A stretch of DNA of 64,000 bases from Bdellovibrionales bacterium (GCA_965219095.1 OZ244719.1:459071-523070), one strand, 5' to 3'; numbered from the stretch's first letter, positions 7,089 to 49,981 are shown. The notes: generated by a model from the letters alone, not told the origin. A program made the numbers and translations.

Positions 7089-7598
7089 AAAATTTCTCCT
7101 TTTTAATCTAAGTTTCTTAAAAAACTCGTGTTTTATGCAGTTGTATCGGTTGATTTATTTGACTAGCTTTAGGGAATTAAAGGGTTTCTGGACAAAAGTT
7201 TCTAATTTTGACTGAAAATGTCAACTTTGCTAAGACTTAAAATTAATGCTTTTGTCTTGATTCTGGTGGGTTTTGTTGAAATTGCTCTAACTGTAACTCG
7301 GTTTTTAAACCACCCCTAACTTATACTGACTACATTTCTTTCAAAAAACCCTTTAAAATCTAAGAAAAATCCCACTCGTAGGAGTCAAGGGCGGTCAGAT
7401 AACCGACTTATTACAGAATTTGGAAGAGATAGATGAGGTCTCCATCTCAGAGGGAAGAAGCTTGTTTCGCAGAGAGTAAAAAAAGCAAAATGGAAAAAAA
7501 GTTTTTTTCATATTTACTTCCAATTTCTATAAAAAGCCTTGAAAGGCTGGCTAGTAAATGGTAAAGGTGTAGTTGGTTTAACTTAAGGCGGGCACAGA

Positions 7599-11236: not shown

Positions 11237-11559
11237 TTTTATTTCTCCTTTTAAAATATGGCGAAGAAGCTTAAAAAGCTCCCTCATTTGGTTTCTTCTA
11301 AGAACTCTGACTTTTCCTCACTGAATATGGTGAATTTACGCACTCAAAAAAGTGTTGTAAATTTTACTTTTCTTGCTTTGCATTATGTAACTCCTTTCCT
11401 TTTCGATTTGTTATTTGTTTTTTGACCTTTTTTTTACTCCTTTCTGAGCCATTAAAAAAACTAAAGCTAAACTCAAAAAAACAAAAATTTTTTAACCTGA
11501 TAGAGAAAATTTTTAATTTAAAAGTTCTAAAAATTTTCTCTATTTTTTCCTCCTCCCAC

Positions 11560-11722
11560 ACCCCCCTTTCCTCTTCCCACATCTATACACCCAACTCTGT
11601 GGTACCGTGACCACCCTCTCCCATACTAAAAAAAGTATGAGCGGGAGAGGGTGGTCACGGTGAAAACCGAAGGTTTTAGCAGAGTTGGGTGTATAAAGAC
11701 AAAGGGAAAAGGAAAGGGGGGG
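11560..11722. repeat. Nested long palindrome (module 1 copy)
   Basis: Outer arms TATACACCCAACTCTG / CAGAGTTGGGTGTATA enclose arms CCGTGACCACCCTCTCCC / GGGAGAGGGTGGTCACGG. Inverted copy of 21367-21529. Confidence 0.8.
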
Positions 11723-11787
11723 CATGCAAGACATGTTTTCAGCACTATAAGAAAATTCCAGAATTTTTTTAAAACTACTCATAAAGC

Positions 11788-12057
11788 TCACTCCTTTAAG
11801 TTAAAAATTTGAAACAAATCTTGTGAAGTTTTGATCTTATCAATGAGTACAGCCTGACCTACTTTTAAGTTCTTAAAAACATCAGGTTCGCTCTTCATTT
11901 TTTTGGTCTCCAAAAGATTCCCTAAGCCTGTTTTTATAGCACTCCCTTGAAGAATTTGGCTTTGAGCTTTTAGGCTTACAAGGTCTTGAGATTCTTCTTC
12001 TATATTCATAAGAAGCCTTAAATTCTTTTTTTGTTTTTTGTACTGTTTAAATTTCAT
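11788..12057 (-). pseudogene. Remnant of T4CP (TraD/VirD4-like) gene, internally deleted
   Basis: DLVSLKAQSQIL and KMKSEPDVFKNLKVGQAVLIDKIKTSQDLFQIFNLKE match the middle and C-terminus of the intact 531-aa protein at 37447-39042. No ATPase motifs are left. Confidence 0.6.
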
Positions 12058-20330: not shown

Positions 20331-20460
20331 GCAGATCTGTTACAAATTTGCATATTTGTTACAAATGTAACAGATCTGTTACAAAATTGCATATTTGTTA
20401 CAAATGTAACAGATCTGTTACAAATGTATCGGATTCAGCAAATTTGTAACAAATATGCAA
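20331..20460. repeat. GTTACAAAT iteron/palindrome array (module 2 copy, one extra 41-bp unit)
   Basis: Repeated TTGCATATTTGTTACAAATGTAACAGATCTGTTACAAA units. AACAGATCTGTT is a perfect palindrome. The outer 19-bp inverted repeat is TTGCATATTTGTTACAAAT / ATTTGTAACAAATATGCAA. Confidence 0.8.
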
Positions 20461-20564: not shown

Positions 20565-21301
20565 ATGTATGAAGCAAAAAACAAAAAAAGAGTTCTTATG
20601 AAGATAGAAGCACCTCAAAACCTTGTAAGCTTAAAAGCTCAAATCCAGACCCTTACTTCTCCAGAATTTAGAAACTCCTCTATACATGAAGAAAAAGAAA
20701 TCGATCTCCTGGATGTTATGAAAAAAAATCAAATAGCCTATTTCCAGTTGAATTTAAACAGCTATGGTTTTTTAGGTAAGAAAATCGGTAAAATTCTAGT
20801 TCAAGATCTAAAGGTTATAAGCTCTCAGATTCAATCAGGACAAGTGGATTTTAAGCCTTTACTTTTAGGGGTCTTGATTGATGAATTTGGATCTTTTGCT
20901 ACACCTGATTTTTCAGATTTTTTAAAGCAAGTAAGATCTGCTGGTACAGGAGTTCACTTATTTTGCCAAGGCTTAGCTGATTTAAATGTTGTAAGTCAGA
21001 GTTTTAGCAATCAAGTGTTGGGAAGTGCGGCCACTAAAATCATACTTCGACAAGATGTGAAGAGGACTCTCGAAAAATGGGCTTTTACAGTTGTCACTAG
21101 GGGCACTGTAGGTAGGAGTTTTCAGGTCAGTGAACGCATTCTGGGGAACTTAAAAAAACAGGCTTAGGGAATCTTTTGGAGACCAAAAAAATGAAGATCG
21201 AACATGATGTTTTTAAGAGCTTAAAAGTAGGTCAGGCTGTACTCATTGATAAGATCAAAACCTCACAAGATTTGTTTCAAATTTTTAGCTTAAAGGAGTG
21301 A
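20565..21301 (+). pseudogene. T4CP (TraD/VirD4-like) gene lacking the N-terminal half, frameshifted near the 3' end
   Basis: Aligns to residues of about 290-531 of the 37447-39042 protein (QIAYFQLNLNSYG, LIDEFGSFAT, GVHLFCQGLADL). The Walker A part is absent. The C-terminal KMKIEHDVFKSLKVGQAVLIDK is in another frame (21171-21301). Confidence 0.75.
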
Positions 21302-21366
21302 GCTTTATGAGTAGTTTTAAAAAAATTCTGGAATTTTCTTATAGTGCTAAAAACATGTCTTGCATG

Positions 21367-21529
21367 CACCCCCTTTCCTTTTCCCTTTGTCTTTATACAC
21401 CCAACTCTGCTAAAACCTTCGGTTTTCACCGTGACCACCCTCTCCCGCTCATACTTTTTTTAGTATGGGAGAGGGTGGTCACGGTACCACAGAGTTGGGT
21501 GTATAGATGTGGGAAGAGGAAAGGGGGGT
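21367..21529. repeat. Nested long palindrome (module 2 copy), oriT-like
   Basis: Outer arms CCCCCTTTCCTTTTCCC..TATACACCCAACTCTG / CAGAGTTGGGTGTATA..GGGAAGAGGAAAGGGGGG. Inner arms CCGTGACCACCCTCTCCC(gctc)ATACT / AGTATGGGAGAGGGTGGTCACGG. Confidence 0.8.
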
Positions 21530-21851
21530 GTGAGAGGAGGAAAAAATAGAGAAAATTTTTAGAACTTTTAAATTAAAAATTTTCTCTATCAGGTTAAAAA
21601 ATTTTTGTTTTTTTAAGTTTAACTTGAGTTTTTTTAATGGCCGAGAAAGGAGTAAAAAAAAAGGTCAAAAAACAAATAACAAATCAATCATGAAAGGAGT
21701 AGCATAATGCAAAGCAAGAAAAGTAAAATTTACGACACTTTTTTGAGTGCGTAAATTCATCATATTCAGTGAGGAAAAGTCAGAGTTCTTAGAAGAAACC
21801 AAATGAGGAAGTTTTTTAAGCTTCTTCGCCATATTTTGAAAGGAGAAAAAA

Positions 21852-22109
21852 ATGGATAAAAAAGAATTGAAACCAATTAAAAAAGGTAGTAGTTTAGAGA
21901 ACACTATTCGCCCTCAAAAAAAGGGCCTGTTCTTTGACAATTTAATAACCGTAGAGGAATTAGCCTTAGCGTTTGGGCTGTCTCCTAGAACGATTAAAAA
22001 TTGGGTGAGTTTAAGACAAATCCCCTTTATTCAGTTCAGAAGAAGGACTTACTTTCTTAAAGACAGTATCCATAGATGGCTTCAACAAAAGGAGAAATCA
22101 TGTCAATAA
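21852..22109 (+). CDS. Excisionase-type HTH DNA-binding protein (module 2)
   Basis: MDKKELKPIKK...VEELALAFGLSPRTIKNWVSLRQIPFIQF. It overlaps the integrase start. Confidence 0.7.
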   Translation: MDKKELKPIKKGSSLENTIRPQKKGLFFDNLITVEELALAFGLSPRTIKNWVSLRQIPFIQFRRRTYFLKDSIHRWLQQKEKSCQ

Positions 22110-23275
22110 CCAAACGTAAAAGGAAAAATAAAATAACATATCAAGCAGAAATTTATGTAAGAGGAATTCGTCTGAAAGCAAAAAGCTTTCAAACAAAAAC
22201 AGAAGCCTGTATATGGCACGATAAGGAAAAAAAACGTCTTCAAGAAGGAAGAGTTTCTCTTCAAGAAGAGTTAAGAGAACTTTTCTTTGAAGACTGTGTG
22301 AGAAGGTATCTTAAAGAGTATGTTCCTACTTTAAGAGATTCCAGTCAAAAGAAGATTCAACTTCTTTGCGAGAGGTTTTTTCTACAAAGTCCTTTAGCAA
22401 AAACAAAAATGTCAGATATAGACCATGTCAGTATTGACACTTGGATTGACTGGCTTTTTAGAAGCTTTAAAAACACTGTCAACCGCCATTCTTTTAGAAT
22501 AGAGTTAAGGCGTCTTGGCTCTGTTCTTCACTGGTGGAGAAACTACCTTGATCCAAGCTTTAGCTTTCCTATTGTTCGTGGTCATAGAAATCGGTGTTAT
22601 GTGAAGAAGCGAGAATCTAAGGTGAAAAGGCCAGATTACTTTGCTAAACCTGAAGAGGTGAGGGCTTGGCTTAACGAACTTAAGAAGATTCAAAACCCTG
22701 TTTATTACCGTTTAGCTCAGTTTATGATTTTAACAGGAGCGAGAGTAAGTGAAGCTTGTGGACTTATGTGGAGTGAAATTGATTTTAAGAATCGTTTTGC
22801 AAGAGTTGTTAGAACAGCTGACTGGTCTTCTGAAAAACCTCAAATTCTAGAAACCACAAAGACTAAGACTTCTGTAAGAGTTTTAACTCTTCCTGAAAAG
22901 CTCATAGAGCTTTTGTATGAAATGAAAGAGGAATCTAATAATCCTCTTGTGTTTTACTCTTCAGAAGGAAAGGTCGTTCCTTACACTACCATTCGTTGGG
23001 CCTTTGATAAGTCTTTTAAGACCTGCAATCTTCCTTGGAGAGGAACTCATATTTGCCGTCATACTTATGCCACAATGGCTTTAATGGCGACAAAAAGCCT
23101 CTCAGCTGTCCAAGCAAGTCTTGGGCATAAGGATCAAGCTATGACTCAAAGGTATGCAAAAGTGGTGGCTCTCATTAACTCGGATATGGCAGAAAAAACA
23201 GCTCAGATGTATGAAATGAACTCTTTAGGTTCATCTCCATCACGACAGATCACGACGTCTTTACAGACAAAATGA
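22100..23275 (+). CDS. Tyrosine recombinase/integrase (module 2)
   Basis: Same catalytic motifs as module 1. ATG 22100 lies behind GGAGAAATC; the ORF track allows 22076. Confidence 0.9.
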   Translation: MSITKRKRKNKITYQAEIYVRGIRLKAKSFQTKTEACIWHDKEKKRLQEGRVSLQEELRELFFEDCVRRYLKEYVPTLRDSSQKKIQLLCERFFLQSPLAKTKMSDIDHVSIDTWIDWLFRSFKNTVNRHSFRIELRRLGSVLHWWRNYLDPSFSFPIVRGHRNRCYVKKRESKVKRPDYFAKPEEVRAWLNELKKIQNPVYYRLAQFMILTGARVSEACGLMWSEIDFKNRFARVVRTADWSSEKPQILETTKTKTSVRVLTLPEKLIELLYEMKEESNNPLVFYSSEGKVVPYTTIRWAFDKSFKTCNLPWRGTHICRHTYATMALMATKSLSAVQASLGHKDQAMTQRYAKVVALINSDMAEKTAQMYEMNSLGSSPSRQITTSLQTK

Positions 23276-37446: not shown

Positions 37447-39042
37447 ATGATTTTCTTTTTAGGGGGAGTGATTGCACATAAAGAGATTAAAAAAGCTCCT
37501 TATGCTTCTAAAAGGCTTGCGAAAAACTATAAATTTATAATTTGTATTTTTATTGGCCTTGTCATTTTAGAGACTCTTTTTTATCTACTTGTTTTAGACC
37601 TCTTGTTTTTCTGGTTAGCACAGCTTTTTGTATTTTGGATCTTTCAGGCTTTTTTACTTTTTATAACTTGTAATTTTTGGCTTAAGGATGAGAACATAAA
37701 ATCCAAAAAACGCATTACAGTGGATCATTTGGAGGGAGAAGAAGTTGATTTCAAAACTTTTGAGAAGGCTCTTGAGTCTAAAGACTCAGCTCCTATAGGA
37801 GCCAATTTTGTCAAAAAAGAGCTTGTAAGTTTACCTGTCAGTTCTAGAACAGAGCATTTACTTGTTACAGGAGCGACAGGCACAGGAAAAACAACCTTGA
37901 TGATGAATTTACTGAGGCACAGTTTTTTGCATAAACACCCTCTTGTGATCCTTGATCCTAAGGGGGAAATAAAGGACATAGAGATGATAAAATTCCTTTT
38001 TTGTGAGTTAGGAAGAAAAGAGGAAGACTTTAAGCTTTTTTCTCTTGCACAGCCTGAAAAGAGCTTGTCCTACGATCCTTTGAAGTATGGAACAAGTGAA
38101 CAAGTGAGGTCGAAACTGATGCTTGGCCTTAGTTTTACTCATGATTATTATGCTTCACAAGCCAGTCAGTATCTTTCTATCTTGCTTTCTTGTTTTGAAG
38201 CTCTAAAAAAGAAAATGAATCTTAAAGAATTAAAACAAGCCCTCAACAACTCTCACAAAGAATTTATGGAGAAAAAAGAGCTGGAAGGGATGGAAGATGA
38301 TGTAGCTTCTTTATCTCAAATTAAAAAAGAAGACCTTGCAGGATTAAAAGCTCAGGTTGAGATTTTAAACTCTAGAGAGTTTTCTCATCTTCTTTCTTCT
38401 TCAAAGTGTCAAATTGATTTAGTTGAGATTTTGGAAAAAGGTCAGGTGGCTTATTTTCAACTGAACACAAACGGATATGGTGATTTTGCAAGACGTTTAG
38501 GCAAAATGATTGTGCAAGACTTGAAAGTTATAAGCAGTCAAATTCATGCAGGACAAATAGCACCTAAGTTTAACTTTGCAGGGATATTTATTGACGAATT
38601 TGGCTCTTTTGCAACAAGAGATTTTAGCGACCTTCTTAAAATGATCAGAAGCTCTAACATAGGGGTTCATCTTTTTTGTCAAGGCTTGGCTGATTTAAAA
38701 GCTGTATCTTCTGAGTTTTCGGATCAGATTTTAGGTAACACTGCTTATAAGCTGATCTTCCGTCAAGATGTCCCTCAAGACTGTGAAACATGGTCTTCTG
38801 TTTGTGGAACTATAGAAGATAAAGCTATGACCTTTCAAGTGTCATCACAAGAGATGTTAAGCGAGTTTGAAAAAACAGGCTTAGGTTCACTTTTTAACAC
38901 CAAAAAGATGAAAGTGGATTTTGATGTTTTTAAGTCTTTAAAAAGAGGTCAAGCTCTTCTTATTGATAAACTTCAAAACAAGCAAATTTTACTTCAAGTT
39001 TACAATGCTAAAGAAAAAAAGAAGAAAGGCTTGGAGAAATGA
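37447..39042 (+). CDS. Type IV coupling protein-like ATPase (TraD/VirD4/TrwB family), the only intact copy
   Basis: N-terminal TM helices, Walker A VTGATGTGKT and Walker B-like FIDEFGSFAT. 531 aa. Confidence 0.75.
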   Translation: MIFFLGGVIAHKEIKKAPYASKRLAKNYKFIICIFIGLVILETLFYLLVLDLLFFWLAQLFVFWIFQAFLLFITCNFWLKDENIKSKKRITVDHLEGEEVDFKTFEKALESKDSAPIGANFVKKELVSLPVSSRTEHLLVTGATGTGKTTLMMNLLRHSFLHKHPLVILDPKGEIKDIEMIKFLFCELGRKEEDFKLFSLAQPEKSLSYDPLKYGTSEQVRSKLMLGLSFTHDYYASQASQYLSILLSCFEALKKKMNLKELKQALNNSHKEFMEKKELEGMEDDVASLSQIKKEDLAGLKAQVEILNSREFSHLLSSSKCQIDLVEILEKGQVAYFQLNTNGYGDFARRLGKMIVQDLKVISSQIHAGQIAPKFNFAGIFIDEFGSFATRDFSDLLKMIRSSNIGVHLFCQGLADLKAVSSEFSDQILGNTAYKLIFRQDVPQDCETWSSVCGTIEDKAMTFQVSSQEMLSEFEKTGLGSLFNTKKMKVDFDVFKSLKRGQALLIDKLQNKQILLQVYNAKEKKKKGLEK

Positions 39043-39047
39043 GAAGA

Positions 39048-39282
39048 CACCCAACCCAACCACTCTTTTATAACCTATCACTACTGTGTACCTGTGGTGA
39101 CGAAAGTGAGTTAGGGTGGTCAAATCTTAAACCCTTTCAACAAGTCGTAAGAATGGGCGTAATAAGGCCCTTTGATAAGGTCTTGTTTTCATTGGGTTTA
39201 GGATTTGACCACCCTAACTCACTTTCTAATCTCTCTGGTAGATGTGGTGTGTGATGTGTGGTGTGAGTGGTTGGGTTGGGTA
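39048..39282. repeat. Nested long palindrome (module 3 version), oriT-like
   Basis: Outer arms CACCCAACCCAACCACTC (39048-39065) / GAGTGGTTGGGTTGGGT (39265-39281). Perfect 25-bp inner arms GAAAGTGAGTTAGGGTGGTCAAATC (39102-39126) / GATTTGACCACCCTAACTCACTTTC (39202-39226). Confidence 0.8.
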
Positions 39283-39441
39283 GTAGGTTGGTGGAAAAGG
39301 AAAGGAAAGAAAATTTTTTTAAAGCTAGTCTTAAAAAAATTTTCTGTTTGTTAAATCTGCGGACGAACTTTTATAAGCTCTCCGCACTATCCTCTCTTGA
39401 AGCTCAAGAAAGGATGTAAATCAATAAGGAAAGGAGTAGAA

Positions 39442-39669
39442 ATGAAACTAAAAACTACAATTTATGACGCACTCTCAGTCAGAGCTTATAAAGACTCTCA
39501 GGGAAACGAAAAAGTGGACTACCAAAGAATAGGTGTAGCCTTTGGTTTAAAGAACAAAAACGGTTTTTCTTTGAAGCTCACAAGCTTGCCTGTCTCAGGG
39601 GAGCTTGTGGTTATAGAAAGAATACCAAAAAAAGAGCAGAAAAATGATACAGAAGAAATGCCCTTTTAA
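39442..39669 (+). CDS. Small hypothetical protein (module 3 only)
   Basis: ATG behind AAGGAAAGGAG. Encodes MKLKTTIYDALSVRAYKDSQGNEKVDYQRIGVAFGLKNKNGFSLKL... Confidence 0.4.
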   Translation: MKLKTTIYDALSVRAYKDSQGNEKVDYQRIGVAFGLKNKNGFSLKLTSLPVSGELVVIERIPKKEQKNDTEEMPF

Positions 39670-39734
39670 AGGCTTAGAATACCAAATGAGGGAGCTTTAA
39701 GCTCCCTCGTTATATTTTGAAAGGAGAAATAAAA

Positions 39735-39995
39735 ATGAATAAAAAAGAATTGAAACCAATCAAGAAAAGTAGTAGTTTAGAGAACACTATTCGCCCTCAA
39801 AAAAAGGGCCTGTTCTTTGACAATTTAATAACTATTGAGGAGCTTTCAGAAAATTTAGGTTTATCTAAGAAGACTTTACAAAATTGGGTTTCTTTAAGGA
39901 AAATCCCTTATGTAAAAATAGGCCGAAAGGTTTATTTTAGGTCTTCTCGCTTACAGCAGTGGATTGAACGAAAGGAGTTCAAATCATGTCTGTAA
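39735..39995 (+). CDS. Excisionase-type HTH DNA-binding protein (module 3)
   Basis: MNKKELKPIKK...IEELSENLGLSKKTLQNWVSLRKIPYVKIGRKVYF. Confidence 0.7.
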   Translation: MNKKELKPIKKSSSLENTIRPQKKGLFFDNLITIEELSENLGLSKKTLQNWVSLRKIPYVKIGRKVYFRSSRLQQWIERKEFKSCL

Positions 39996-41188
39996 CTAAA
40001 ATTAAAAGAAAAAAAAAGAACGTCTATCAAGCTCAAGTGTATGTCAGAGGAGTGAGGCTTTCGAGTAAAGTTTTTGAAAACAAAACTCAAGCTTACATTT
40101 GGCATGATAGAGAAAAAGATCGCCTTGAAAAAGGTGAAACTATAGAAGAAAAAGAACTTAAAGAATTGCTTTTTTGCGATTGTGTAGAAAAGTACATCAA
40201 AGAGTATCTGCCTAAACTGAGAGCTTCCAGCCAGAGAAAAATCTTATTGAATCTGAAAAATCTTTCAGTTAACAGCCCCTTAAATAAAGTCAAGATGTTA
40301 GACTTAAAGGCAAAGGAGATAAGCCTTTGGATTTCTTGGTTTCAAAAGAAAACTAAGAAGTGTAGGCAAAGACAGAGTTTTAAAACAGAGTTTAGGCGAC
40401 TTGTAGCTGTTCTAAACTGGTGGAGAAATTATGTTGACCCAAATTTTGTTGTTCCTGTAGTGAAAATGCATAGAGATATTTGCTATGAGACAACTCAAAA
40501 ACTAAGACGACCTGACTACTTTGCTAGACCAGAAGAAATACAGCTTTGGCTTCAAAAGCTTCAGAAAATATCTAACCCTGTTTATTATAGACTGGCAAAG
40601 TTTATGATTTTAACAGGAGCTAGAGTGAGTGAAGCTTGTGGGCTTTTATGGAAAGAAGTTGTCTTTGAAGAAAAATTTGTACGTGTGGTAAGGACAGCTG
40701 ATTGGGGAGGTAACAAAATAACTCTCTGTGAAGACACTAAAACGAAAGCATCTAACAGGCTTTTGGTTCTTCCAGAGAGACTTGTGGAGTTGTTAAGGGT
40801 TATGAAAAGTGAGTCTCCCGAAAATCCCTTAGTCTTTCATTCAAGAGAAGGTGAAATGGTGTCTTATACAAGCATTCGCTGGGCTTTTGATAAGTCCTTT
40901 AAGGCCTGCAATCTTCCTTGGAGAGGGACTCATATTTGCCGTCATACTTATGCCACAATGGCACTTATGGCGACAAAAAGTCTTTCCGCTGTGCAAGCAA
41001 GTCTTGGGCATACAGATCAAGCTATGACTCAAAGGTATGCTAAAGCGGTAGCTTTAATAAATTCTGATATGGCAGAAAGAACGGCTAGCATGTACGAATC
41101 GAAATCACTTACAAAATCACTTACGCACCCTCAAAAGACCCTAAATGAGTCCTCATTAAGGATAAGGGAAAGTGATTCTAGCAGTTGA
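39986..41188 (+). CDS. Tyrosine recombinase/integrase (module 3)
   Basis: GARVSEACGL, WRGTHICRHTYAT and TQRYAK. More diverged in the N-terminal half than int1, int2 and int4. Confidence 0.9.
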   Translation: MSVTKIKRKKKNVYQAQVYVRGVRLSSKVFENKTQAYIWHDREKDRLEKGETIEEKELKELLFCDCVEKYIKEYLPKLRASSQRKILLNLKNLSVNSPLNKVKMLDLKAKEISLWISWFQKKTKKCRQRQSFKTEFRRLVAVLNWWRNYVDPNFVVPVVKMHRDICYETTQKLRRPDYFARPEEIQLWLQKLQKISNPVYYRLAKFMILTGARVSEACGLLWKEVVFEEKFVRVVRTADWGGNKITLCEDTKTKASNRLLVLPERLVELLRVMKSESPENPLVFHSREGEMVSYTSIRWAFDKSFKACNLPWRGTHICRHTYATMALMATKSLSAVQASLGHTDQAMTQRYAKAVALINSDMAERTASMYESKSLTKSLTHPQKTLNESSLRIRESDSSS

Positions 41189-44283: not shown

Positions 44284-45020
44284 ATGTATGAAGCAAAAAA
44301 CAAAAAAAGAGTTCTTATGAAGATAGAAGCACCTCAAAACCTTGTAAGCTTAAAAGCTCAAATCCAGACCCTTACTTCTCCAGAATTTAGAAACTCCTCT
44401 ATACATGAAGAAAAAGAAATCGATCTCCTGGATGTTATGAAAAAAAATCAAATAGCCTATTTCCAGTTGAATTTAAACAGCTATGGTTTTTTAGGTAAGA
44501 AAATCGGTAAAATTCTAGTTCAAGATCTAAAGGTTATAAGCTCTCAGATTCAATCAGGACAAGTGGATTTTAAGCCTTTACTTTTAGGGGTCTTGATTGA
44601 TGAATTTGGATCTTTTGCTACACCTGATTTTTCAGATTTTTTAAAGCAAGTAAGATCTGCTGGTACAGGAGTTCACTTATTTTGCCAAGGCTTAGCTGAT
44701 TTAAATGTTGTAAGTCAGAGTTTTAGCAATCAAGTGTTGGGAAGTGCGGCCACTAAAATCATACTTCGACAAGATGTGAAGAGGACTCTCGAAAAATGGG
44801 CTTTTACAGCTGTCACTAGGGGCACTGTAGGTAGGAGTTTTCAGGTCAGTGAACGCATTCTGGGGAACTTAAAAAAACAGGCTTAGGGAATCTTTTGGAG
44901 ACCAAAAAAATGAAGATCGAACATGATGTTTTTAAGAGCTTAAAAGTAGGTCAGGCTGTACTCATTGATAAGATCAAAACCTCACAAGATTTGTTTCAAA
45001 TTTTTAGCTTAAAGGAGTGA
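44284..45020 (+). pseudogene. Truncated/frameshifted T4CP gene (module 4, duplicate of 20565-21301)
   Basis: The 200-aa ORF is identical except for one residue (TVVTRG versus TAVTRG). Confidence 0.75.
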
Positions 45021-45085
45021 GCTTTATGAGTAGTTTTAAAAAAATTCTGGAATTTTCTTATAGTGCTAAAAACATGTCTTGCATG

Positions 45086-45248
45086 CACCCCCTTTCCTTT
45101 TCCCTTTGTCTTTATACACCCAACTCTGCTAAAACCTTCGGTTTTCACCGTGACCACCCTCTCCCGCTCATACTTTTTTTAGTATGGGAGAGGGTGGTCA
45201 CGGTACCACAGAGTTGGGTGTATAGATGTGGGAAGAGGAAAGGGGGGT
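45086..45248. repeat. Nested long palindrome (module 4 copy)
   Basis: Identical to 21367-21529. Confidence 0.8.
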
Positions 45249-45570
45249 GTGAGAGGAGGAAAAAATAGAGAAAATTTTTAGAACTTTTAAATTAAAAATT
45301 TTCTCTATCAGGTTAAAAAATTTTTGTTTTTTTAAGTTTAACTTGAGTTTTTTTAATGGCCGAGAAAGGAGTAAAAAAAAAGGTCAAAAAACAAATAACA
45401 AATCAATCATGAAAGGAGTAGCATAATGCAAAGCAAGAAAAGTAAAATTTACGACACTTTTTTGAGTGCGTAAATTCATCATATTCAGTGAGGAAAAGTC
45501 AGAGTTCTTAGAAGAAACCAAATGAGGAAGTTTTTTAAGCTTCTTCGCCATATTTTGAAAGGAGAAAAAA

Positions 45571-49721: not shown

Positions 49722-49744
49722 ATTATTTTAACTTTAGTGAAATT

Positions 49745-49981
49745 ATGACAGCTCAAGATAGGGATACCTCTTTAGCTGTCATGTCGGCTGTGATGAGTGA
49801 GTTCTCTCACCAGCTCTTAGAAAAAGAAGATCATGACAAGCTCATTTTTATTGTGGATGAAACACCTTTTTTCATTCAACACTCTTTTGAGACTTTTAAA
49901 CTTTTGAGTAAAAACGTAAGAAAGCTTGAAAAGGATAAAAATCTGGAGGAAAACATGGAATCTATTTTTAAAAACAAATGA
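49745..49981 (+). pseudogene. Possible fragment of a conjugative/secretion ATPase
   Basis: LIFIVDETPFFIQ is Walker-B-like. The ORF is short and isolated. Confidence 0.2.

Follow-up and report, generated by a model that had tools for sequence, protein, structure and literature searches.

The DNA analysed here is a stretch of 64,000 nucleotides from a Bdellovibrionales bacterium (GCA_965219095.1 OZ244719.1:459071-523070), referred to below, at its full length, as the window. At 21367-21529 it contains a 160-bp nested palindrome, designated type A, which is probably the large inverted repeat of a MOBC-type origin of transfer (oriT) belonging to a family of integrative and conjugative elements (ICEs) of Bdellovibrionales/Oligoflexia. 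The palindromes of the window each lie between a gene, or the remnant of a gene, for a type IV coupling protein (T4CP) and genes for an HTH_17 excisionase (xis) and a tyrosine integrase (int). Here the upstream neighbour is a 200-aa 3' remnant of a TraD/VirD4-like T4CP gene (20565-21167, +; Pfam TraG-D_C), which has 47% identity with the intact 531-aa T4CP over residues 294-499 of the latter, and downstream follow xis (21852-22109) and int (22076-23275), both on the + strand. The intact T4CP gene is found only at 37447-39042 (+; Pfam TrwB_AAD_bind and TraG-D_C, NCBIfam SXT_TraD partial), where it precedes a palindrome of different sequence, designated type B, with its own xis (39717-39995) and int (39986-41188) on the + strand; the other palindromes of the window stand beside T4CP remnants.

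The type A palindrome consists of three nested arm pairs and a side hairpin, and extends over 21369-21527 (+), as seen from the arms and from folding, with a match to the covariance model R1 described below. The outermost arms (21369-21385 / 21511-21527) are 17 nt long and 94% complementary, the outer arms (21394-21409 / 21490-21505; 16 nt) and the inner arms (21428-21446 / 21467-21485; 19 nt) are 100% complementary, and the side hairpin AAAACCTTCGGTTTT occupies 21412-21426. The core, which is the candidate nick region, spans 21432-21451 on the T4CP-sense (+) strand and consists of TGACCAC (21432-21438) and CTCA (21448-21451), the complement GTGGTCA being located at 21475-21481; TGACCA and (C)TCA are separated by 10 nt in type A and by 6 nt in relatives. 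Copies 99-100% identical to this palindrome were identified by sequence identity and R1 matches at 11560-11722 (-, module 1) and 45086-45248 (+, module 4), the palindrome at 21367-21529 being that of module 2. The type B palindrome (module 3) lies 3' of the intact T4CP gene at 39048-39281 (+; 39048-39282 as a 235-bp variant), with outer arms at 39048-39065 / 39265-39281, perfect 25-nt inner arms at 39102-39126 / 39202-39226, and TGACCACCCTAACTCAC in the 3' arm at 39206-39222.

A preliminary description of the locus had quoted the arms of modules 1, 2 and 4, all of which were present as given, and had stated that module 3 combines another sequence with the same design, as the type B arms bear out. 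Its statement that both types keep TGACCACCC in the inner arms proved right, with a difference in placement to be added: the motif of type A belongs to the 5' arm and points towards the loop, that of type B to the 3' arm, pointing away from it. The set of copies listed for the window was also correct, and the 3.1 Mb genome (two contigs, C1 and C2) carries more, amounting to six type A copies (91-100% identical) and three type B copies, plus fragments. Folded as RNA, type A gave -114.5 kcal/mol against -52.5 +/- 4.5 for shuffled sequences (z -13.9); the z-scores were -14.1 for type A folded as DNA and -11.6 for type B, and in all cases none of 200 shuffles reached the real energy. One type A copy outside the window (C1:534870-536090, -) has no TGACCAC inner hairpin; its side hairpin is inverted and lengthened into a perfect snap-back palindrome, CTAAAACCGAAGGTTTTAG, and an insertion of about 1.1 kb resembling the IS630/Tc1 type is found at a TA directly after GGGTGTATA.

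Homologues of the T4CP (34-50% identical) were found in metagenome-assembled genomes (MAGs) of Bdellovibrionales/Oligoflexia, and in 11 of 22 homologous loci of other genomes a TGACCAC...GTGGTCA hairpin is located 100-400 nt past the T4CP stop codon, accompanied by a small upstream hairpin, a GT-rich 3' tract and surrounding outer arms CCACCACCAACC / GGTTGGTGGTGG. The covariance model R1 was trained on nine relatives only, with no window sequences, and found the three type A copies of the window on the correct strand (that of module 2 at 21393-21509, +; 29.5 bits, E 3.9e-4). Of the 109 family genomes 17 gave R1 matches, with as many as 7 copies in one genome, and of the 301 order genomes 28 did; the succession T4CP, hairpin, xis, int was kept in half (11/22) of the strong matches. 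At three loci (L104, L096 and L106) the palindrome is accompanied by xis and int, with no T4CP gene upstream within the 1.5 kb flank; these may be mobilisable derivatives, resembling integrative and mobilisable elements, of the kind represented by the window modules.

Pairing of the arms was analysed in 22 homologues, in an alignment that was fitted to the model: 91.4% of the stem cells were paired, as against 72.6% in shuffles and 34-47% with slid partners, 16 of the 21 stem pairs showed double changes, and the covariation score was 0.489 as against 0.159, with none of 500 shuffles attaining the real score. An independent MAFFT alignment of nine sequences analysed with RNAalifold gave compensatory changes in 10 of 21 pairs. 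The core takes part in this variation, occurring as TAACCAC/GTGGTTA, TAATCAC/GTGATTA and TAACTAC/GTAGTTA, and in L117, the closest relative of type A, as TTAACTC/GAGTTAA with the side hairpin likewise compensated. Inverted repeats with a conserved 7-bp core and with xis and int close by might be taken for a duplex protein-binding or recombination site unrelated to nicking, such as an operator, an Xis/Int accessory site, or a resolution or partition site. A dimer operator, however, conserves sequence and has no need of some 20 covarying flanking pairs or of nested outer arms, and compensatory variation of the core itself is more in keeping with a structure than with a duplex of fixed sequence, so that a site of this kind is considered very unlikely.

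The pairing is nearly pure Watson-Crick (G-T in 8 and A-C in 12 of 456 stem cells), and although the + strand folds slightly better on average (mean difference, + minus -, -3.3 kcal/mol), the asymmetry is non-significant (p 0.08). Symmetric Watson-Crick pairing on both strands fits a DNA palindrome and argues against an RNA read on one strand. Such an RNA could be a cis-regulatory element or processed small RNA in a T4CP-xis transcript, for example controlling the expression of xis and int, or a very strong terminator or insulator, and the co-directional intergenic site, the RNA fold z-score, the slight advantage of the + strand and, in type A and L117, a Shine-Dalgarno sequence with ATG and an open frame running into the palindrome all speak in its favour. 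Besides the scarcity of G-U pairs, it is opposed by the absence from the whole window of any Rfam family at gathering score (below threshold only generic eukaryotic miRNA-hairpin matches appeared), by a promoter scan that gave only two promoter-like matches, at 21316-21345 (+), no more than in shuffles, by a terminator scan that gave no terminator-like site adjoining the palindrome, and by the occurrence of the same design in enterococcal plasmids at what is reportedly an experimentally defined DNA site; a structured RNA is accordingly held to be quite unlikely.

The open frame crossing the palindrome extends over 21298-21549 and recurs at 45017-45268, at 11540-11791 (-) and, in the related locus, at L117:8372-8590, these frames being 72-83 codons long. 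By eye and by DNA alignment, the Shine-Dalgarno-ATG region is conserved with L117 at the DNA level and the peptides are unlike; the frame at 21298-21549 was treated as non-coding, the peptide not being conserved, and is probably open because the arms are poor in A.

In all fuller elements, including two C2 loci of the genome (C2:1801341-1802024 and C2:1045514-1046209), a gene of 225-246 aa overlaps the start of the T4CP gene. It accounted for 16 tblastn matches, 14 of them among 24 loci and two at the C2 places, and was found in every fuller relative reaching that far; the window copies encode no such gene. The product shows weak MarR or winged helix-turn-helix (wHTH) matches at its N-terminus, and the family has an invariant block, D140 ... 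E153-x-E155-xxx-K159-xxx-R163-Y164. In TraX, the residues D152, E170, E172, K176, R180 and Y181 are reportedly essential, and they are spaced as in the D140...Y164 block. TraX, the relaxase of plasmid pAD1, consists of a wHTH domain and a PD-(D/E)XK domain (PMC6736028, PMC12857230). A profile search gave 59 relatives of the relaxase-like protein, two of which (P0057 and P0059) pass the threshold of Pfam PF13814, Replic_Relax, a family that CONJscan equates with the MobC relaxase superfamily (PMC5357655). Comparison by hhalign with the relaxase of plasmid pAM373 (NC_002630, typed MOBC by MOB-suite) aligned the D..ExE...K...RY block (E 9.5e-4), and in the joint alignment D, ExE, K and Y were invariant, R being kept in 90% of rows or more. 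The genome's own protein, modelled with AlphaFold (pLDDT 78.8), matched restriction endonucleases, nickases and MarR folds (PaqCI, EcoT38I, N.BspD6I, HincII, OkrAI and MarR proteins), with E-values of 0.01 or worse. As no single statistic is strong, the assignment is based on the motif, the bridging sequences and the class of fold. Pfam and NCBIfam scans of the neighbouring open reading frames (ORFs) gave no relaxase at threshold, a scan for HxH motifs in ORFs with no assigned family gave nothing convincing, tblastn of the 233-aa relaxase-like protein against plasmids gave only two weak matches, to a 'replication-relaxation' gene of small Yersinia plasmids, and a profile search of the family against sequences in the PDB gave only weak wHTH matches.

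The intergenic region between the T4CP and relaxase genes of pAM373 contains five 12-nt direct repeats and, next to them, a nested palindrome of 142 bp. The outer arms of this palindrome are 18 nt long; its inner arms, TGCAAAATTCCTGACCATTTTAGCG and the complement, have 25 nt and hold CCTGACCA. Three further enterococcal MOBC loci (L120-L122, the last of them pAD1-like) have palindromes nested in the same way, again with TGACCA in the inner arm, and their relaxases are 42-60% identical to that of pAM373. Read on the T4CP-sense strand, the enterococcal sites have TGACCA-N6-YTCAACGTGGG and the Bdellovibrionales sites TGACCA-N6-CTCATC, three of the latter reading ...TCAACG...; TGACCA-N6-(C)TCA is common to 20 or more relatives and to the enterococcal MOBC oriTs. 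When R1 was run over the whole of pAM373 with filters off, the top match was the inner repeat, in register (20.6 bits, E 0.022). Francia and Clewell (2002) are said to have described the oriTs of pAD1 and pAM373 as a homologous inverted repeat of about 140 bp beside short direct repeats, with TraX nicking within the inverted repeat and the repeats conferring specificity. Just past the nested palindrome of L121 (L121:2261-2310, Enterococcus faecalis plasmid LR962631) lies a GT-rich hairpin, TGTGTGTTGTGTGTGGG and its complement, which recalls the GT-rich tract that follows the hairpins of Bdellovibrionales on their 3' side.

Single-strand origins (ssos) are found on ICEBs1 and Tn916, and the palindrome might be one of these, or another priming or maintenance site, instead of or besides an oriT, in which case it would fold in the transferred strand, or in the strand displaced during rolling-circle replication, and recruit RNA polymerase or primase for synthesis of the complementary strand. 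Like ssoA-type ssos and sso1 of ICEBs1, it is a long imperfect palindrome that folds strongly as single-stranded DNA, carried by an element for which a single-stranded phase is probable, and the abstract of Francia and Clewell (2002) reportedly names a possible maintenance role for the inverted repeat. An sso, however, works in one orientation and usually tolerates G-T pairs on the functional strand, whereas the pairing here is symmetric and showed no strand specificity; the sequence match is to the inverted repeat of an oriT beside relaxase and T4CP genes and not to an sso motif, and no RS_B-like or CS-6-like motifs were noticed, though no formal motif search was made. Such a role is therefore regarded as unlikely.

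The reading of the palindrome as part of a MOBC-type oriT is thus supported by its conservation and covariation, its synteny with the T4CP gene, the relaxase-like partner and the match to enterococcal oriTs. The preliminary description had favoured an oriT or other single-stranded DNA recognition element beside a coupling protein, which the covariation, the MOBC-type relaxase-like gene and the enterococcal match now support, and had offered a structured RNA as the alternative, which the lack of any G-U excess, the non-significant strand asymmetry and the lack of an Rfam family disfavour. Of the checks and refutation tests it had proposed, comparison with homologous modules of other genomes showed the arms to be conserved, folding as single-stranded DNA and as RNA gave energies far stronger than those of shuffles, and covariation analysis gave compensatory changes in 16 of 21 pairs among the homologues collected.

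Several observations weigh against the oriT reading. The R1 match on pAM373 is marginal, and a hairpin model will give a score to any hairpin that is long and perfect. The relaxase homologue of the genome itself reaches 16.8 bits where the PF13814 threshold is 25.3, the hhalign probability is 22%, and no Foldseek E-value is better than 0.01. The order of the genes is relaxase, T4CP, oriT in the present elements and T4CP, repeats, oriT, relaxase in enterococci, and no clear direct-repeat array flanks type A, where the purine-rich tract described below is a candidate only. Type A, with its spacer of 10 nt, and type B, with its core in the opposite (3') arm, both differ from pAD1 and pAM373; type B moreover matches R1 weakly (15.4 bits), and a BLAST search with it over the 109 family genomes gave no relatives. 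Enterobacterial CloDF13 contains no TGACCA/TGGTCA palindrome anywhere, in a record with poorly annotated mob genes, and the TGACCA core is consequently not universal in MOBC systems. The hosts are mostly uncultured MAGs, and the T4CP gene of the fullest type A element in the genome has an in-frame TGA, from which it follows that the copies of this genome may all be inactive.

In enterococcal plasmid pAD1, TraX binds five direct repeats 70-120 bp from the nick site, nic (PMC12857230). In 14 of the 22 relatives a purine-rich GGAA/GAGGAA tract starts at a distance of 73-124 nt on the 3' side of the +-strand core; it starts at +73 in type A and at +83 in type B, and by analogy with pAD1 it is a candidate relaxase binding site. 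The type A tract consists of short GGAA/GAGG repeats at 21507-21546 (+), part of it being the 3' outermost arm; clear tandem units are present only in some loci, as (GAGGAA)x4 in L090 and L103 and as GGAAA(A/G) x3 beside type B (about 39293-39310). The core of type B, in the other arm yet at the usual distance from the purine tract, may owe its placement to this distance.

From the excision genes that are present and the sequence features named here, we infer the following course of transfer for an oriT of this kind. The element would be excised by means of xis and int, and the relaxase would dock through its wHTH domain on the flanking short repeats, for which the GGAA-type tract 70-120 nt 3' of the core is the candidate. 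The palindrome would then extrude or melt, the relaxase would cut one strand in or beside the inner-arm core TGACCA-N6-(C)TCA, and the adjacent VirD4/TraD-like coupling protein would pass this strand to a VirB4-containing type IV secretion system (T4SS). The nick is predicted, from the motif shared with the enterococcal sites, to fall near TGACCA-N6-C|TCA.

Two separated half-copies of type B were observed on C2. The first (C2:1156976-1157046, corresponding to window 39040-39110) consists of the T4CP 3' end and the 5' half, ending at GAAAGTGA(G), and the second (C2:1249348-1249419, corresponding to 39219-39290), 92 kb away on the same strand, begins with TCACTTTC and is followed by a small gene and an xis module. 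The breakpoints, 39109/39110 and 39219, occupy opposite positions in the inner stem, exactly at TGACCACCCTAAC|TCAC, and the order of the halves (3' half-xis... ...T4CP-5' half) is that expected if a circular element had been linearised at oriT and then inserted. The breakpoints may mark the cut site, or they may reflect breakage of the palindrome. It is conceivable, though doubtful, that the relaxase, in place of a classical single nick with a covalent intermediate, acts on an extruded hairpin or cruciform and cuts the inner stem at C|TCA on both arms; if so, the half-copies would be a natural map of the cut site, and two-arm cutting would help to explain the absence of a covalent relaxase-DNA intermediate for MOBC enzymes.

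Modules 1, 2 and 4 of the window retain iterons, the T4CP 3' end, the palindrome, xis and int, and have no relaxase gene, no T4SS genes and no more than the end of the T4CP gene. The iterons form a GTTACAAAT array at 20331-20460 (+) beside the T4CP remnant, with further clusters at C2:1809926-1810029; the fuller type A element of contig C2 carries them at its extreme upstream end, some 10 kb away from the palindrome, and their adjacency to the remnant in the window identifies modules 1, 2 and 4 as internal-deletion derivatives. These are relaxase-less, with the putative oriT, xis and int intact, and having lost the relaxase, the T4SS and most of the T4CP they would be mobilisable only in trans, if at all. 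Perfect retention of the palindrome with xis and int in such decayed modules is the survival expected of a cis-acting transfer site, and is explained by this reading. A VirB4-like remnant of 68 aa at about 49724-49927, 57% identical to the VirB4 of a relative by tblastn, is further debris of a conjugation module. The VirB4 proteins of the elements (L059:2952-5078 in relative G016; C2:1805676-1807736) match Pfam P-loop_TraG (Bacteroides-type TraG/VirB4), and most of the other T4SS genes (423, 218, 179, 173 and 161 aa) match no Pfam family; the conjugation apparatus of this Bdellovibrionales ICE family is largely unannotated.

Directly 3' of the type A palindrome lies a second, AT-rich hairpin (21546-21589, +), GAGAAAATTTTTAGAAC, with arms ATAGAGAAAATTTTTA / TAAAAATTTTCTCTAT; its sequence is conserved in L117 (L117:8572-8624, GACAAAATTTTTAGAGC), analogous hairpins occur downstream of the palindrome in L064 and L065, and it may serve as a terminator or as an operator of xis and int. 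Many elements have a gene of about 70-90 codons (MN..I.VYDA...GVAFP.K..KG..LKL...) in the interval from the palindrome to xis, among them L117:8705-8929, L054 at about 7300-7505 (-), C2 just below 1249348 and, in the window, 39397-39669; it has no Pfam match, and its product might be an accessory or single-strand-binding relaxosome factor.

To our knowledge, MOBC oriTs have been defined by experiment for a few plasmids only. The relatives collected here provide a second set of putative MOBC-type oriTs, far removed in phylogeny from the first and comprising dozens of natural variants in which changes are compensated. These variants show which features are under selection, namely the nested hairpin together with its TGACCA-N6-YTCA core, as read on the T4CP-sense strand. 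The same reading annotates a family of Bdellovibrionota conjugative elements, including those of small-genome MAGs, in which Pfam and NCBIfam scans had missed the relaxase and the oriT at threshold. The MOBC relaxases are the least understood class: they are restriction-enzyme-like, no covalent intermediate has been seen, and they bind far from nic (PMC12857230).

Among known systems, CloDF13 with MobC and MobB, the enterobacterial MOBC prototype, shares the relaxase superfamily (PMC12857230, PMC6736028); it was dropped as a second comparator on account of the missing TGACCA palindrome and the poor annotation. The oriTs of HUH relaxases, such as those of R388 (hairpin IR2 with nic 8 nt 3' of it) and F, likewise place a relaxase-recognised hairpin beside a single-stranded nick region, and differ in that the palindrome here is nested and about five times longer; of the ORFs checked in the elements, none was seen to encode an HUH relaxase. 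The sequence GTGGGGTGTGGTG in the GT-rich 3' tract of relatives resembles the nic region of F, and was set aside as a probable chance likeness in a low-complexity tract because no such relaxase was noticed.

The closest counterparts are oriT2 of pAD1 and the oriT of pAM373, with the relaxases TraX and Orf8, respectively, and the T4CP-like TraW; the likenesses were checked on the sequence of pAM373 and on the three further enterococcal loci. In both groups, and in all four enterococcal loci compared, a nested repeat of about 140-160 bp comes directly after the T4CP gene, and its inner arms share TGACCA-N6-YTCA, with arm, strand and register in agreement (types A and B deviating as described). 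Short repeats are found tens of nucleotides away, here as the candidate purine-rich tract, and the partner protein, here the relaxase-like one, combines a probable wHTH with a probable PD-(D/E)XK domain bearing D..ExE...K...RY. The hosts are Bdellovibrionota here and Bacillota there, and the carriers are integrative elements with xis and int here and pheromone plasmids there. The arms here are C-rich and G-rich with a GT-rich spacer, unlike those of pAD1 and pAM373, the repeats proposed for binding are rich in purines and are found on the opposite side of the palindrome from the pAM373 repeats with their 12-nt period, and the relaxase-like protein shares only about 20% identity with the relaxase of pAM373. 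MOBC relaxases are known from both Gram-negative and Gram-positive bacteria, where plasmids and ICEs carry them. Such relaxases and the pAD1-type oriT being already known, the present case is a distant example on Bdellovibrionota ICEs and no new mechanism; the comparison across phyla yields a concrete prediction of the nick region, and the shared core together with the compensatory variants should be useful to specialists.

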